A stretch of 64,000 nt of DNA from a virus (IMGVR_UViG_3300028584_001242); one strand, 5' to 3'. Numbered from the stretch's first letter, positions 1-59,016 are shown. Made by a program: numbers and translations. The notes: generated by a model from the sequence alone, not told the origin.

Positions 1-1214
1 TTGAGTTTTCACCAACAGGTGAAATAATAACAGCCAATGAGAAGTTTTTAAATTTAATGGGATACTCCCTAAATGAAATAGTAGGGAAAAAACATTCTAT
101 ATTGTGTGACAAACTATATGCAAACAGTGCTGATTACAAAAAGTTTTGGAATAAGTTAGAAGCGGGTGAATATATATCTGATATGTTTAAAAGACTTGAT
201 TCAAAACAAAAAGAAATATGGCTAGAAGCTTCTTACAATCCTATATTTGATAATAACAACAAAGTAGTAAAAGTAATAAAATTTGCAAACGATATTACTA
301 GATATGTAGAGGAAAAAAATGAAGATAAAAGTAAATTAGATGCCCTTAATTCATCTATGGCTGTTATTGAGTTTACACCTGAAGGTATTATTTTAAATGC
401 AAACAATAACTTTTTATCAACAACTGGTTATACATTAAAAGAAATAGTGGGTAAACATCATAATATATTTTGCGAAAAAGCGTATAGTCTTCATTCAGAA
501 TATAAAAGGTTTTGGCAAGATTTAAAAAATGGGCAATTTTTTAATGGTCAATTTAAAAGATTAAATAAACAAGGTAATGATATATGGCTTGAAGCAACTT
601 ATAATCCAATAAGAGACGAAAATGGAAACGTAGTTAAAATTGTTAAATTTGCAAGTGACACCACAAAATTAGTTAACCAATTAGATGCTCAAAAGAAAAG
701 TGCAGAACTTGCATTTTCAATATCAAATAATAATAAAGAAACAGCACAAATCTCAGTAACTACAATAAATGAAACAAATAATGAAATGACAAACATTATA
801 AAATCAGTCAGTGCCACAGAGATTCATTTAAAGTCATTAGAAAAACAATCTGAAAAGATTAAAATGATATTAAATGCTATATATAAGATTGCAACACAAA
901 CTAATTTGTTAGCGTTAAATGCTGCAATTGAAGCCGCCAGAGCTGGAGATGCTGGAAGAGGTTTTGCAGTAGTGGCTAAGGAAGTAAAAGAATTATCAGG
1001 CAATACAAGTGACTTAGTTAAAAGTATTTCTGAAATAATAGAGGAAATTAATAAAGAAACAGAATGTGCGGTTAAACAAATGGAAAGTGTAACTCAGAAC
1101 ACAGAAAGAAGTGTAACATTAATGATTGAAGTCGAGCAGTTAGTGACTGAAATAAGTATCGGCTCTGATAAAATATTATCAGCTATTGCCCAATTATCAA
1201 AAGAGTTAAGTTAA
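1..1214 (+). CDS. methyl-accepting chemotaxis protein with tandem PAS domains (aerotaxis-like), 5'-partial
   Basis: The reading frame is open from nt 3, upstream of the listed ATG at 57. Repeated PAS blocks ([43 protein letters not shown]) precede a C-terminal MCP signalling motif [32 protein letters not shown] terminator follows. Confidence 0.8.
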
Positions 1215-1598: not shown

Positions 1599-1739
1599 TG
1601 TTATTGCTTCCCTTTGGGTAGATACAGCGTTTCGATTCCACTGTATGCCCACTGGAATTGTTACGAAGGTCAACATCACCTACTAAAGCCCGAGAAGGAC
1701 GCTAATAATATAACAATAAGGCCGAGATGTCAACACATT

Positions 1740-1997
1740 TTAGATATTTTGAGGGACTGGCTTACGTTCAACAAAACCAATAATCAAGCCATCTTCGTTG
1801 GTCATATGGACATGAATAGAAGAATACACCCAGAAGGCTTTTACTCGGAAGGCAGTAGACCACTTGTTCGATTCTATAAAATCAAAAAGGGCACCCATTT
1901 GATCAACACATTTAACAGCATTTCGTTCAAGCAGTTTGACCAACTCTTCTTTGCTAGATACCGTTGATTCAAAAGCAGGTTGCTGAGCGTTATTCAT
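1740..1997 (-). CDS. hypothetical protein, 85 aa
   Basis: A TATACT -10 box lies about 35 nt upstream on the minus strand (plus-strand 2030s). The overlapping plus-strand ORF 1473..1967 has no such signals. Confidence 0.4.
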   Translation of the reverse strand: MNNAQQPAFESTVSSKEELVKLLERNAVKCVDQMGALFDFIESNKWSTAFRVKAFWVYSSIHVHMTNEDGLIIGFVERKPVPQNI

Positions 1998-2079
1998 GAT
2001 GTTTACTCGTTTTGGTTAAGTGACTGCAGTATAGCAAAATACTGAGCCACTTGCCAATGATTTATGTAAAAACTAGTTT

Positions 2080-11871: not shown

Positions 11872-11898
11872 AAACAAAAAACCGCCAAGAAGGCGGTT
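11872..11898 (-). terminator. terminator ACCGCC-UUCUU-GGCGGU plus U-run (minus strand)
   Basis: It ends the tRNA-like transcription unit. Confidence 0.55.
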
Positions 11899-11917
11899 CG
11901 TTTGTATCTTAAATTAG

Positions 11918-11990
11918 GAGGACCGACTGGGACTCGAACCCAGAATTCATCCGGTTAAGGACGCTTGTTCCCGTTAAACACCACCGGCCC
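11918..11990 (-). tRNA. tRNA-like gene with a contracted 6-nt anticodon loop (possible non-canonical tRNA or pseudo-tRNA)
   Basis: Acceptor GGGCCGG/TCGGTCC with two G-U pairs, D-arm TGTT-TAACGGG-AACA, canonical T-arm CTGGG-TTCGAGT-CCCAG. The anticodon arm folds only as CGTCC-TTAACC-GGATG. It has its own consensus promoter and terminator. Confidence 0.5.
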
Positions 11991-12036: not shown

Positions 12037-12065
12037 ATTATATAGAAAACAGGCGTAGCTGTCAA
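12037..12065 (-). promoter_or_regulatory. consensus sigma70 promoter module C: TTGACA-N17-TATAAT plus leader AATCACATCAAGACGAAGC
   Basis: The -35 box is at plus 12060-12065 and the -10 box at plus 12037-12042. It drives the tRNA-like gene. Confidence 0.65.
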
Positions 12066-12121
12066 CAAGATCATCAATTATTTTGAAAAGAAAATAGTCT
12101 TTTTATGATGATAAAAAGGTT

Positions 12122-12156: not shown

Positions 12157-12331
12157 AGATGCGGGATGAGAAGAAACTCATCTTTCAGGGTTGTTGTTTA
12201 GCATCCGATGACCATTCAGAGGCTCTGCCGACATGGTAGCTCGTCATACGCTGGTGATGTATGATGGAAAACCGCACCGCATAAAAGGAGTCCAATCTTC
12301 TTTTTGGGAGAGGCTAAATGCCTCTTTTTTT
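12157..12331 (+). ncRNA. candidate small RNA N1 (about 170 nt, GC-rich island between promoter and terminator)
   Basis: No ORF longer than 26 aa. Terminator GAGAGGC-taaat-GCCTCTT plus T8. Contains GCATCCGATGACC and UUUUUGGGAGAGG motifs shared with N2 and N3. Confidence 0.4.
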
Positions 12332-49597: not shown

Positions 49598-49670
49598 GGC
49601 TGTATGATGGGACTCGAACCCACGACTACCGTTTTTCGACGGAGTTCTGCCGACTGAACTACAAACAGCC
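49598..49670 (-). tRNA. tRNA-like gene with a contracted 6-nt anticodon loop, CCA not encoded
   Basis: D-arm GTTC-AGTCGGCA-GAAC (A14, G18/G19), T-arm GTGGG-TTCGAGT-CCCAT, 6/7-bp acceptor. The anticodon arm folds only as CCGT-CGAAAA-ACGG. It lies immediately downstream of basic-peptide gene 3. Confidence 0.45.
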
Positions 49671-54230: not shown

Positions 54231-54480
54231 TGTTTAAGAACAATGATTGTTAAAAATTTTACCCATCGACCTGATTCCGCAGGTGCGTTTAACTGGCGGG
54301 ACGCCAGAGCCATTTGTCTCAACAGAGTTACACAAGGCGTATTGTCCTTGTGACATATCATTGGGATTCGATACCCAACTCCCAACTCCCTTCACAGTAG
54401 TCCTCGGCCAACGAGGTGGAATTTCGCCACCACTTCGAAAAATTACTTCTCAATAAGTTTTCGAAGAAGTGTTGAAATAC
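54231..54480 (-). ncRNA. candidate structured RNA N2 / roughly 300-nt 5' leader of the EF-hand gene (GC-rich island)
   Basis: Starts about 7 nt downstream of the consensus promoter. No credible ORF. Contains hairpin GGUGGCGAAAUUCCACC, tandem GGGAGUUGGGAGUUGGG and AUCGAAUCC. Confidence 0.35.
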
Positions 54481-54486
54481 ATGATG

Positions 54487-54515
54487 AGTATAGCTTAAAA
54501 ATAGACGTATGCAAA
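54487..54515 (-). promoter_or_regulatory. sigma70 promoter TTTGCA-N17-TATACT
   Basis: The -35 box is at plus 54510-54515 and the -10 box at plus 54487-54492. Confidence 0.5.
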
Positions 54516-54946: not shown

Positions 54947-56188
54947 TCAAACAGCCATCATTTTAAAAACTTCAATCTGTCGAGCGGTTAGCTCATCAGG
55001 GGTAGTAGCAATCGTCTCTGTAATAACTGTTCTGATTTCATTTAAAACAGTATTGTAAACGAAATCAATATTGTTAGTAAAGTATTGAACCAACTTAGTG
55101 TCAACATCGTTTTTATTACCAATATAACTTTTAAATTGATATTGGTAACCATTTTCGCTTTCGCCATCAACACACTGTTCATAGAGAGAGTCAATATTAT
55201 CGTTTGGCTTTAATTGATTACCAAGAGTAAGTAGCAACGATCCACCAAATAACGCAAAATGACAATATTCTGAATTAATTCCAGATGAAGGAGCTAACTC
55301 ATGTTTTCCATAATTTTTGAAGCTGATTGAAACGTCATGTGTCGTTGAACGTAAATCAGCATAAAAAGACATAAGGTTAATAAACTGCTTAAATTTCGTT
55401 TCAGAATCTTTATCTTTCGAAAGCTGCTTGATGATTTTAGGCAAAAGTGCTGTCATGTGATGAGGTATTTTCACATGTTTATGCGGCTCTTTAACCTCTT
55501 TGTTGTGTTCCAAAAGATCATCAACGTGAATAACTAATTCAGCACATGCTTTTGCAATTAAATCGTCTTTATGAATATAGTTAAAATCAAATTTTTCAAA
55601 ATGTTCAACAAGCAAATCCTGAGTTGATTTATTCATGAACGTAATAACTTCTTCTGAATGTTCAGTGTATCCATCAAAACCAAGAATATTTAATACCTTT
55701 GGGTTTACAAGAGACAGTGCTTCATTAAGTTTTTGTTCAAAGTCATCACTCAATGAATAGTCAACACTCACAGTATTCCCGTATAGCCAAGAAACCCGAA
55801 TCTCAGTGGCTGTTAATTTAATTCGAAGAGATGGTAGACAATCACCAAAAATAGTAAAGTCAATATTTTGTTCTTTTTCATAGTTAACTTTTAAACATTT
55901 TTGCTTACGATCATCAGGAATAGCATAAACGCCATAGAGAAATGATCGAATATTCTCTATTTTCATCATGGTTTCAGCAGTTAAATCAAAATGTTTTTCA
56001 AATAAGTTAACATCATCATGTGAAACAAGATATATAAAAGAGTTCTTCAGCGTAGCAAATAAACATTGGTTTTCATCTTCCAAAGAAAGTCCGCTGTGTG
56101 TGTTTGGCGATAGGATCGTCATATTTTTAGAGTCGGCAAACGCCAAAATAGATTTCTGAAGCTCATAAAAACGGTCAGTTAAATTCAA
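54947..56188 (-). CDS. hypothetical protein, 413 aa, TTG start, very AT-rich; tandem paralog of 56215..57441
   Basis: GAGGAA RBS 5 nt before TTG. Shared C-terminal block NIDFVYNTVLNEIRTVI...FKMMAV. Confidence 0.55.
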   Translation of the reverse strand: MNLTDRFYELQKSILAFADSKNMTILSPNTHSGLSLEDENQCLFATLKNSFIYLVSHDDVNLFEKHFDLTAETMMKIENIRSFLYGVYAIPDDRKQKCLKVNYEKEQNIDFTIFGDCLPSLRIKLTATEIRVSWLYGNTVSVDYSLSDDFEQKLNEALSLVNPKVLNILGFDGYTEHSEEVITFMNKSTQDLLVEHFEKFDFNYIHKDDLIAKACAELVIHVDDLLEHNKEVKEPHKHVKIPHHMTALLPKIIKQLSKDKDSETKFKQFINLMSFYADLRSTTHDVSISFKNYGKHELAPSSGINSEYCHFALFGGSLLLTLGNQLKPNDNIDSLYEQCVDGESENGYQYQFKSYIGNKNDVDTKLVQYFTNNIDFVYNTVLNEIRTVITETIATTPDELTARQIEVFKMMAV

Positions 56189-56214
56189 AATAAATTCCTC
56201 GTTATGGTATGTGT

Positions 56215-57441
56215 TTAAAATACAGCCATGTTATAGACTTCAAGATCTTTGAAGCTAATACCATCATCATCATCTTTATGCAACACTTTCTTAACAATAT
56301 TGCAAAGGTCAGTTAAAACTTCATTATAAACGTAATCAATATCATTGGTAACATATTCTTTATACTCATAGGTATCTATATTTTTTAAATAGATAAATGA
56401 AAAAAACTTATTGTCATCATTAGGCTGGACATACACAGCATCATCCTTTGCATTTGGCATGATGTTGTGGCCTATTTTAATGATTAATGTATCACTAATA
56501 TTAAGCCGATAAAAAGATCTGTCACTTGACTGGCCCTTAAAGAAATCTCGTTTTTTCACAGGCATGAAAGATACAGAAAATTTCGTTTTTTTATGGGTGA
56601 TTAAATTATAAAGAACAATAAGACTAATCAACTGATCAATTTTTGATTTAATTCCATCTTTTTTAACAATATGTTGAGCCATTGAAGATATCATGGTTGT
56701 CAAATTGTTTGGAATGTGAAGATTCGAAAAGGTGTCATTATTTTTAGCATTCAAAGCTTTAAGCACAACATTGACATTCAACTTTAAATCAGTGCAAACC
56801 AAATGAACAAGTTCAAGGGGCTGTAAATAGTTAAAAATCGGATTAACACCTTTTTCGAAAAACATTTCATCTGCAGTCTTTTTAATAAAATCAACAACCT
56901 CTGGTGAGTTTTGGTCTGTTGATTTAAATCCATTATAATTCAAAAAAGAGGGGATAACTTGATGGGTAGCCCTATTAACAATACTATCAATATCATCATA
57001 ACAATCAATCAGGTGTGACTCACTTTTAAATTTTTGATCAGCAACAGTCACATAAAGATGGGAGTTGTTGATAACAATCCTAAAACTAGAAAGACCACTA
57101 CCAATAATAGAGAATTCAATCTCTTCTGGTTTTATTTTTACCTTATGCAATGCATGTGGGATTATCATTTCTTCTGGATCAATGTTTGAAATTAATGTCC
57201 GAGTATTTTCAATATTTTGAAGAGTCTCTGGTGAGAGTTTTAGAAAGTCATAGATCACCCTAACATCTTTATGAGCAAGTAAATAAAGACTGACTGGGCC
57301 AATATGCGAATAATTAAATTGATTGTCACTCTCCAACTTAACATTGCGGTTTAAAAATATGTCCAATGGTGCCAAGTTTAAAAGTTCAGCCGACTGTAAG
57401 ACTAGTTTTTTTAAGTCACCTGCGAGTGTATCAATGTCCAA
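56215..57441 (-). CDS. hypothetical protein, about 408 aa, probable TTG start, very AT-rich; tandem paralog
   Basis: No in-frame ATG near the 5' end. AGAGGAT plus 7 nt then TTG (LDIDTLAG...). C-terminus DIDYVYNEVLTDLCNIV...VYNMAVF. Confidence 0.5.
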   Translation of the reverse strand: MDIDTLAGDLKKLVLQSAELLNLAPLDIFLNRNVKLESDNQFNYSHIGPVSLYLLAHKDVRVIYDFLKLSPETLQNIENTRTLISNIDPEEMIIPHALHKVKIKPEEIEFSIIGSGLSSFRIVINNSHLYVTVADQKFKSESHLIDCYDDIDSIVNRATHQVIPSFLNYNGFKSTDQNSPEVVDFIKKTADEMFFEKGVNPIFNYLQPLELVHLVCTDLKLNVNVVLKALNAKNNDTFSNLHIPNNLTTMISSMAQHIVKKDGIKSKIDQLISLIVLYNLITHKKTKFSVSFMPVKKRDFFKGQSSDRSFYRLNISDTLIIKIGHNIMPNAKDDAVYVQPNDDNKFFSFIYLKNIDTYEYKEYVTNDIDYVYNEVLTDLCNIVKKVLHKDDDDGISFKDLEVYNMAVF

Positions 57442-57559
57442 AAAAAAATCCTCTAAATGTTTGGGGCATGATATCACAAATTCAAAATAAATGACAGGTC
57501 TATTTTAATACAGGAACAAAAAAAAGGGCCGAAGCCCTTTTCTATGTAGTTCGCAATTA

Positions 57560-57913: not shown

Positions 57914-58111
57914 CTTGTGAAGCTCCGTCTCTGTTTGTGTGGGGTAATTATAACAACGAAACACCTCAATGACAACACTTTATTCAATCATTTTTAAGTT
58001 TTTTCAAAAAACGCTACGAATAAATATTGATCCTTAATTATCTCACAAAATTCAAAGCTTGTAAATCCACCAGAATAGGGTTTTAGTTATTTTTGATGAA
58101 AAAAGAGTAAT

Positions 58112-58144
58112 AAAAAACCCTAATGGCTCTCACCAAAAGGGTTT
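58112..58144. terminator. bidirectional terminator AAACCC-N18-GGGTTT with flanking A and T runs
   Basis: It ends candidate RNA N3 on the minus strand. Confidence 0.5.
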
Positions 58145-58433
58145 ATGTTTTTTTAGAATTAATGAAATTGCATTAAAGAAAACTTCATTGAAGGATTTCT
58201 CTAATACAATCTGATCAAGTCAGATTGCAGAGCAGTCGCTACCTAACTCAAGTGCCGAAGTCTTGCGATCCTTTCTGCTAAGAAAGTTAACGGCGTTTTC
58301 CCCTTGCAGTCCCCAATGGTCGAGGCCAATCCCATCAGAATGAGTGTCCGCACAAAGACCTCCCAATGCTCCCAATGTCAAAAATATGACAACAGTTGTG
58401 CCTTACGAGAACATAAATGGATCTCGTATCGGA
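58145..58433 (-). ncRNA. candidate small RNA N3 (about 320 nt including terminator, GC-rich island)
   Basis: Between the perfect consensus promoter and the terminator. The longest ORF has no SD. Contains GCAUCCGAUAC, CAUUGGGAGCAUUGGGAGG, and hairpin CAAUCUGA-ucaag-UCAGAUUG. Confidence 0.45.
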
Positions 58434-58440
58434 TGCCACA

Positions 58441-58469
58441 ATTATACGACAAAATGAGAAAGGTGTCAA
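58441..58469 (-). promoter_or_regulatory. perfect consensus sigma70 promoter TTGACA-N17-TATAAT
   Basis: The -35 box is at plus 58464-58469 and the -10 box at plus 58441-58446. Confidence 0.65.
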
Positions 58470-58482
58470 AGCTTTTCAACAA

Positions 58483-58506
58483 AAAAGGAGCCGAAGCTCC
58501 TTGATA
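58483..58506 (-). terminator. terminator GGAGC-UUCG-GCUCC plus U6 (minus strand)
   Basis: It ends gene 58528..59016. Confidence 0.6.
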
Positions 58507-58527: not shown

Positions 58528-59016
58528 TCAGAGTTTCAATTGAGCCATAACAGCCTTCACGCATTCGTCATGGTGTTCACGAACGGTTTGTTTCGAAGTC
58601 AATGGACGCTTACCAGCATACAGGTCATTCAATTTCTGTTGAAGTGCTGCAATTTGATCTTCGAGATCATCAATGGCTTCTTTATCGTCCGCTTTGAGCT
58701 TGTGATAACCTGCGTCAAAACAGGCATTCACACGGTAAAGAATACTTTCTGGGTGTTTGGTCAGGTTATAGCGAAAAGATCCTGAGTCACCAAGGCAACG
58801 ACCATCGGCTTGACGAAAAATTCGTTGGGCGTCCATGCTTTTATCCGAAACATGGCTATCAAGAGATTGTGTCTTGTCAGTGGTAAACAGATCATCACTG
58901 GCCGAAGTAACGGTTTCTCGCATCAACGAAATAAAACGCTTGGAATGATAAGTGTTGTTCCAAAGATGAAGGTCATTCAAATTAACAACAATATCACCGA
59001 CTTCGAAATTTGGCAT
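58528..59016 (-). CDS. hypothetical protein, about 162 aa
   Basis: Start MPNFEVGD after a GAGGGA RBS. Confidence 0.5.
   Translation of the reverse strand: MPNFEVGDIVVNLNDLHLWNNTYHSKRFISLMRETVTSASDDLFTTDKTQSLDSHVSDKSMDAQRIFRQADGRCLGDSGSFRYNLTKHPESILYRVNACFDAGYHKLKADDKEAIDDLEDQIAALQQKLNDLYAGKRPLTSKQTVREHHDECVKAVMAQLKL

Follow-up and report, generated by a model that had tools for sequence, protein, structure and literature searches.

What does a virus transcribe from a perfect sigma-70 promoter when no recognizable gene lies behind it? The question is raised by a locus of an uncultured phage represented by IMGVR_UViG_3300028584_001242, of which a stretch of 64,000 nucleotides (nt), hereafter the window, was analyzed. 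The initial annotation assigned a discrete noncoding RNA, N3, to the minus strand at this locus and grouped it with two other regions of the window, N1 and N2, as a family of RNAs with repeated GGGAG or GGA sites. Comparison of N3 with its homologs indicates that it is very probably a structured noncoding RNA gene. The fuller description, that of a stand-alone gene carried on an optional cassette and specifying an early RNA that acts in trans, is probable as well, if slightly less so. The promoter, the terminator, the sequence motifs and the 8-bp hairpin of the initial annotation all stand where it placed them, whereas the strong GC contrast, the lack of an open reading frame (ORF) with a Shine-Dalgarno (SD) sequence and the motif sharing with N1 and N2 do not.

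The N3 promoter (58469..58441, minus strand) combines TTGACA and TATAAT across a 17-nt spacer, an arrangement that occurs twice in the window against 0.03 copies expected from shuffles. Both copies precede noncoding RNAs, the second (12065..12037) a tRNA-like gene. The −35 and −10 hexamers of the N3 promoter are identical in every lineage of the phage group described below, while the spacer between them is almost wholly different in the loci L010, L025, L021, L030 and L044; fixed hexamers around a scrambled spacer are direct evidence of selection on promoter function. The RNA is predicted to start near 58436-58434, at GCAUCC, 5-7 nt past the −10 hexamer, and the motif GCAUCCGAUAC lies at this predicted 5′ end, from 58436. 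A rho-independent terminator at 58144..58112 (minus strand), consisting of an A-rich tract, the hairpin AAACCCUUUUGGUGAGAGCCAUUAGGGUUUUUU and a U6 tail, would end the transcript, which from start to U-run would span 58112..58436 (minus strand). The resulting length of ~325 nt fits that of the initial annotation. The upstream gene, which encodes 174 amino acids (aa) on the minus strand, ends at 58528 and has its own terminator, the stem-loop AAGGAGCUUCGGCUCCUU with a U-run (58502..58485, minus strand). The same stem-loop precedes N3 in L030 and L044 despite a different upstream gene; it is the 5′ half of an element, of the PeSL-like kind described below, that travels with N3. On the other side, two promoter-like sites (58065..58037 and 57975..57947) follow the N3 terminator, ~200 nt before the next gene. 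The GC content of N3 is 0.44-0.48 in 150-nt windows, compared with 0.40-0.47 for neighboring coding DNA and 0.38 for the whole window, a modest island rather than one of 50% against 33%.

Homologous loci were collected by exact look-ups of the flanking proteins and their relatives, which yielded 39 contigs of one phage group (L001-L032 and L041-L047) together with the N3-less locus L040; L033-L036 were left out as unrelated. N3 is present in all but one lineage, on ~40 related metagenomic contigs with 75-100% identity, and each N3-bearing locus holds one copy as judged by both a profile and a covariance model. Identity to the window is 96-99% in L001-L020, 92-94% in L026-L028 and L031/L032, 86% in L025, 80-83% in L021-L024 and 77.5% in L030. 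L044-L046 also carry N3 (nhmmer E about 1e-87), with a core 83% identical to that of the window. At the nucleotide level the flanking genes are no better conserved than the N3 core, L021 being the exception. For the N3 core, the Y00F gene and g117, respectively, identities to the window are 99%, 83% and 72% in L031, 87%, 78% and 68% in L030, and 83%, 76% and 70% in L044.

N3 is a row of about nine hairpins, at least five of which are backed by compensatory substitutions. RNAalifold was applied to 13 and then to 15 distinct sequences, and predicted a series of hairpins in which 6 and 12 base pairs, respectively, had changed on both sides with pairing retained. The fold was then curated and counted on alignment A2. 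In this procedure an invariant 8-bp hairpin, H7, was chosen over the lower part of an alternative long hairpin, and long-range helices disrupted in L030, L044 or L045 were removed (the 5′ GCAUCC with GGxAxUGC, and GCA with UGC). A pseudoknot between GGCCUC of the H3 loop and GAGGUC of the second repeat was dropped as well, being broken without compensation in L016 and L023. The curated fold comprises 12 helices and 79 pairs, with 98.8% of the cells paired across the 15 sequences, and RNAalifold recovers its helices independently. It contains 10 double-change pairs, compared with 4.9±1.4 in shuffles, none of 500 of which reached 10; sliding the 3′ partners by 1-3 columns as a control left 0-4 such pairs. 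The single-sequence fold of N3 has a z score of −2.6. Every 1-nt indel falls at an unpaired place, namely the H5 loop, the H3-H4 linker, the H6 bulge or the H2 loop. The compensatory changes point to selection on RNA pairing and, together with the position of the indels and the lack of a conserved reading frame, bear out a discrete noncoding RNA unit.

The best-backed helices are H3, H4, H6, H8 with its tip, H1 and the terminator, in which an A-U pair becomes G-C in L030. H1, the 5′ hairpin (58404..58428, minus strand; UACGAGA/UCUCGUA), shows a G-C to A-U change in L044/L045 and an A-U to G-U change at another pair, as well as a G·G mismatch in two sequences. It is followed by a tandem repeat of the 9-nt unit CAUUGGGAG (58377..58360, minus strand), the first copy of which is unpaired, while UGGG of the second pairs with CUCA at 58344..58341; the partner reads CYCA across lineages, with G-U, A-U and G-C variants of the pairing. 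H3 (58313..58338, minus strand; CUGAUGG/CCAUUGG) is a 7-bp stem, paired in 100% of cells, that closes the nearly invariant 12-nt loop GAUUGGCCUCGA. Its double changes comprise a C-G to U-A replacement and, in five sequences, A-U to C-G, and two more of its pairs change from wobble to Watson-Crick. H4 (GCCG/CGGC) encloses H5 (CUUUCU-UAGC-AGAAAG) within 58254..58294 (minus strand), a region that also holds the conserved 13-nt internal loop GAUCGCAAGACUU. Two H4 pairs are double changes (G-C to A-U in five sequences), and the H5 loop holds the 1-nt insertions of L025, L021 and L023. In H6 (58230..58249, minus strand; GAGUU-AG/CU-GCUC, with the 7-nt loop GUAGCGA), two pairs changed from A-U to U-A, in two and four sequences. 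The 8-bp H7 (58207..58227, minus strand), with the arms CAAUCUGA (58227..58220) and UCAGAUUG (58214..58207) around CUUGA, has a stem that is invariant in all 15 sequences and a loop in which three of five positions vary. The A/U-rich H8 (58171..58206, minus strand; UAUUAGAGAAA...UUUCUUUAAUG) carries a G-U to U-A change in three sequences, and its tip helix a C-G to A-U change in L030.

The locus behaves like a moron-type cassette with an RNA cargo that is optional within the phage group. T4-type phages are described as gaining and losing non-essential cargo in modules through promoter early stem-loop (PeSL) elements, which place a strong early promoter coupled to a terminator stem-loop on either side of that cargo (Arbiol et al. 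2010, PMC2839356). N3 is likewise bracketed on both sides by a terminator stem-loop and a sigma-70-like promoter, is transcriptionally insulated and lies in a hyperplastic region of ORFans, and it is present or absent between close relatives with boundaries located exactly in the flanking elements. In L040-L043 the unit of promoter, RNA and terminator (58087..58478, minus strand) is replaced by the 9 nt TAATACTAT. The upstream terminator ...CTCCTTTTTTGTT is followed there by TAATACTAT and then by CTAAAACCTATTCTG, which corresponds to the window from 58087 onward; the whole ~390-nt unit is thus absent, and the covariance model of the N3 core finds no match in L040-L043. The Y00F protein of these loci is 76% identical to that of the window. 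In L030 and L044 it is the upstream gene (162/174 aa) that is missing, so that the terminator-promoter-N3 unit directly follows Y00F, and in L044 a different gene, of 211 aa, lies downstream. The cargos described for PeSL cassettes are protein-coding ORFans; the cargo here is a structured RNA, in which no reading frame is conserved.

The setting of N3 is the early hyperplastic region of an uncultured T4-like phage, as reflected in the gene content, the distant matches to cultured phages and the N3 DNA itself, which has no database match. The window consists of a long series of small genes on the minus strand, the majority of which belong to no family. It includes, in addition, two Rnl1-type RNA ligases, a T4 Y00F-family protein, CinA, an AAA_33 kinase-like protein, RNase T and several tRNAs, three of which are the only hits of an Rfam scan at gathering thresholds. 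The closest cultured-phage match of a window ligase is in a Ralstonia jumbo phage (42% identity), and the Y00F protein has almost no relative among cultured phages. N3 had no BLAST match among INPHARED phages, PLSDB plasmids or E. coli genomes, and pattern scans and a protein-based search of IMG/VR gave no real one; the IMG/VR pattern matches L048-L050 are chance occurrences in coding sequences of GC-rich phages. A three-block pattern scan, one each of the Joint Genome Institute (JGI) metagenomes and the GTDB genomes, returned only chance matches within coding regions (L037-L039), and N3 was not found in the more distant DUF7717 loci L033-L036. Several source contigs are labeled MUNK22, which we take to denote a global sewage survey.

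Known RNA families do not account for N3. The best Rfam 15 match over it is trpB, at 33 bits against a gathering threshold of 59 and confined to the terminator region, and scans of N3, N1 and N2 by gathering threshold and by E-value found no relevant family. 6S RNA, tmRNA, RNase P RNA, retron msr-msd, a CRISPR-like array, a type III antitoxin and Y-RNA were rejected on anatomy, none having an Rfam match, and no reverse transcriptase, Cas, toxin or Ro-like gene was seen among the annotated ORFs. A ToxI-like antitoxin consists of 34-36 nt tandem repeats accompanied by a toxin gene, whereas N3 has two copies of a 9-nt repeat, its own terminator and a variable downstream gene. CsrB, RsmY and RsmZ resemble N3 in their size of several hundred nt, many hairpins, strong promoter, intrinsic terminator and presumed stoichiometric action; a sponge of this type is nonetheless not supported, as GGA is not enriched in N3 and its sites are not presented in hairpin loops, and no Rfam match to these RNAs exists. 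The large RNAs GOLLD and ROOL (bioRxiv 10.1101/2024.12.08.627333) are likewise phage-borne and cryptic in role, with a structure backed by covariation. N3 is 2-3 times smaller, has no Rfam match to them and gives no sign of a multi-junction fold or of multimerization, although the palindromic GGCC of its H3 loop could in principle mediate self-association. N3 belongs to a known kind, the phage-encoded noncoding RNA on a moron- or PeSL-type cassette, and within that kind is a new RNA family without a described relative.

How such an RNA might act can be proposed from its context. Host RNA polymerase would transcribe N3 at a very high level immediately after infection, and the RNA would then work in trans by stoichiometric capture, serving as a decoy or sponge for an RNA-binding protein or nuclease of the host or the phage. 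The likely contact surfaces are the invariant unpaired elements: the H3 loop GAUUGGCCUCGA, the linker AAGGGGAAAA, UUAA and the internal loop GGAUCG-AAGA around H5, GGCACA and GCGA in the H6 loop. N3 may serve a non-essential, accessory function in host takeover or counter-defense. A decoy is favored by the large size and many hairpins of the RNA, by the lack of a constantly adjacent partner gene and by the other perfect promoter, behind which lies a tRNA-like RNA whose 6-nt anticodon loop is non-functional, in a genome with many RNA-repair genes. Such a mechanism of protein capture is put forward tentatively, as a possibility.

Several points weigh against the interpretation of N3 as a trans-acting structured RNA. 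The existence of the transcript, its two ends and its stability are predictions, and the function is a guess from context. All homologs come from one phage group, with at least 75% identity and ~5-6 independent lineages, so that the covariation rests on few independent events, and relatedness can inflate the shuffle control for double changes. An SD-preceded GUG ORF is open in every lineage, which makes a small translated product possible. No protein gene constantly adjoins N3, and Pfam and PHROG annotation of 40 neighboring ORFs, mostly ORFans, did not reveal an RNA-binding partner. A search for complementarity to N3 in the 64 kb window gave at best 12 nt (E about 1) and nothing above chance, and pairing between N2 and N3 was likewise not above chance.

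A base-pairing small RNA (sRNA) is the closest alternative to the protein decoy, and is less likely. In that case CCUC of the H3 loop, which resembles an anti-SD sequence, or another unpaired segment would pair with the ribosome-binding region of an mRNA of the host or the phage, possibly aided by Hfq attached to the A-rich tract and the U-tailed terminator. The nearly invariant 12-nt loop on a covarying stem and the rho-independent terminator with its U6 tail and A-rich tract resemble an Hfq-type sRNA, in which a conserved unpaired seed is joined to a U-tailed intrinsic terminator. Phage-encoded base-pairing sRNAs are a documented kind (for example PMC12197685). N3 resembles phage-encoded trans-acting sRNAs in having its own promoter and terminator and an accessory position. 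The complementarity search, which covered the 64 kb of the window, offers no target, and at 325 nt and nine hairpins N3 is far larger than typical seed-type sRNAs. Most described phage sRNAs are prophage-borne, 60-150 nt long and equipped with a short seed; N3, at ~325 nt, lies in an apparently virulent T4-like phage. Taken together, regulation by base pairing seems rather unlikely.

Could N3 instead encode a short early peptide, its RNA structure being incidental? The only coding rival is an ORF of 36 codons (58353..58243, minus strand) that follows GGGAGG-UCUUU-GUG, contrary to the initial annotation, which had seen no SD-preceded ORF. The GUG, 5 nt past GGGAGG, is the same in 15 of 15 sequences, the ORF is open in all lineages, and the 9-nt repeat expansion of L023 keeps the frame. 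The frame is nevertheless poorly conserved toward the C-terminus. In the window group the 36 codons end in ...ERIARLRHLS, while L025 and L030 have 45 codons from the GUG and reach a common C-terminus, ...ELGSDCSxI, via different indels; L044 (44 codons) has a ...GSDCSAI-type end grouped with theirs, and L021 (57 codons) has yet another tail. Three independent 1-nt indels within ~45 codons shift the frame, and in L025, L021/L023 and L030 an upstream AUG without an SD opens ORFs of 62-77 codons (77 in L023). Among the variable columns of the shared 16 N-terminal codons, 3, 5 and 5 fall at codon positions 1, 2 and 3 (hand count on alignment A2), and the substitutions in the ORF are mostly non-synonymous, including coupled changes on both strands of H3. 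In L016 the SD has been lost, and in L044/L045 a distance of 14 nt separates it from the GUG. The stop-free lengths are ordinary compared with dinucleotide shuffles (P = 0.42 for the window, 0.12 for L025, 0.08 for L030 and 0.05 for L021); that of L044 gives P = 0.011, but the long frame there is a different one. In none of the loci (~45 contigs) did a gene caller predict a gene on the sense strand across the N3 core. A conserved frame and length, with an excess of synonymous or third-position change, was looked for and not found, which makes a conserved protein product improbable and a small-protein gene as the explanation of the locus equally so.

An element acting in cis, whether a leader or attenuator of the downstream gene, a transcribed replication origin of the T4 oriF/oriG type, in which an AT-rich unwinding region follows the promoter, or a decayed ORFan between two PeSLs, is a slightly poorer candidate still. 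Such readings could draw on the strong promoter followed by a tract of 27% GC (58200..58000), on two alternative pairings that preclude each other, H7 and the lower portion of the long 3′ hairpin, and on a hyperplastic region full of ORFans. A riboswitch or other cis leader was rejected in view of the terminator of N3 itself and the two promoter-like sites that precede a next gene, which differs between lineages, as in L044. N3 is also dispensable in L040, the compensatory changes point to selection on pairing, and N3 is better conserved than its neighbors, with which decay does not fit.

The remaining proposal, a family of N1, N2 and N3 in which repeated GGGAG or GGA sites sponge CsrA or ribosomes, can be judged from the motif counts and the two other regions. 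GGGAG occurs twice in N3, 9 nt apart, against 0.37 expected (P about 0.05), and a single unpaired GGAG is the only one common to all lineages. GGA itself is not enriched (7 against 6.6±1.8 expected), nor is AGGA (1 against 1.5). The tandem UUGGGAG is not conserved: in L020 and L016 its second copy has become GAGAG or GAGAU, the whole is replaced by CAUUCGGAGGCUUGUGCC in L044/L045, and the second copy, supposedly exposed, lies inside the helix formed with CYCA. In the N3 of L023/L024 (L023 about 735..1085) the 9-nt unit CATTGGGAG occurs three times; the presence of the extra copy in L023 and not in the near-identical L021 indicates that the short tandem repeat expands and contracts between phages. 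The motifs said to be shared with N1 and N2 are at chance level, as the window contains TTGGGAG 8 times where 6.2 are expected, and GCATCCGAT, at 2 against 0.21, is a 9-mer chosen post hoc and at most suggestive.

N1 and N2 show no detectable similarity to N3 in sequence or structure: nhmmer with the N3 profile matched neither, and the sole match in the window of covariance model R1, built on the H3-H6 core, is N3 itself. N2 (54245..54500, minus strand) is conserved, with 83-94% identity in L011-L046, and structured, with seven pairs showing compensatory double changes, and it is absent together with N3 from L040. Since N2 lacks its own terminator and a ~100-aa gene follows closely downstream, it may be a long leader. 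The GGGAGUUGGGAGUUGGG tandem of N2 reflects a duplication of 7 nt seen in this window only, and the AUCGAAUCC loop shows no conservation. The candidate N1 (12157..12331, plus strand) has a plus-strand terminator (12306..12328) and is unlike N3; a promoter scan found no plus-strand promoter immediately upstream, the nearest being at 12083..12112 with 9 of 12 matches. With GGA unenriched, the tandem unconserved and partly paired, and CsrB, Rsm and the other Rfam families unmatched, the sponge model is unsupported, and a shared sponge family appears largely refuted by the sequence and is very improbable.

The tRNA-like gene that shares the perfect promoter (11919..11990, minus strand; promoter 12065..12037, terminator 11899..11879) has a 6-nt anticodon loop, is called 'tRNA-???' by ARAGORN and scores 26.4 bits against the Rfam tRNA gathering threshold of 29. 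It could be a decoy or a non-decoding tRNA. A second aberrant tRNA (49598..49668, minus strand; 42.9 bits) has mismatches in its anticodon stem, and ARAGORN names no anticodon for it. It is conceivable, if doubtful, that N3, N2 and the tRNA-like gene form a counter-defense toolkit of optional, highly expressed RNA decoys directed against host RNA-targeting defenses or RNA-binding proteins. Such a toolkit would sit beside the RNA-repair genes of the phage, which encode two Rnl1-like ligases, the kinase-like AAA_33 protein and RNase T.

Other features of the neighborhood were noted in passing. Two or three paralogous genes, arranged in tandem and encoding proteins of 405-438 aa, lie downstream of N3 (54947..57477 on the minus strand of the window, and in related loci); none of these large proteins matches any Pfam or PHROG family. 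Up to three DUF7717-like paralogs of 116-121 aa also lie there, and their number varies by lineage. In L044-L046 a 136-aa gene (1629..2039), ~3.5 kb upstream of N3, has a weak Pfam match to Acb1, an inhibitor of cyclic oligonucleotide-based antiphage signaling (anti-CBASS), and the CinA and AAA_33 genes lie between it and N3; the region around N3 may be rich in counter-defense genes there. At the other end of the window, a 385-aa protein (57..1214, plus strand) contains PAS domains and a methyl-accepting chemotaxis signaling domain (Pfam E = 3e-32), an unusual phage cargo encoded on the strand opposite to most genes. In L022 (JGI 3300034157, Ga0370506_000001) the phage region is part of a contig with a reported length of 1.9 Mb, which is unexpected for a T4-like phage and might reflect a concatemeric or chimeric assembly, or another cause.

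The noncoding RNAs of virulent phages are poorly charted, and N3 offers a clean and testable case, with defined ends, a backed fold, natural relatives that lack it and a promoter suited to any sigma-70 host. It shows that the PeSL or moron cassettes of T4-like phages can hold RNA cargo besides ORFans. That the two strongest promoters of the window both drive RNAs suggests that this phage invests in abundant, stable early RNAs. If the partner of N3 is a host defense or RNA-binding factor, N3 would be an RNA-based device for host takeover or counter-defense.

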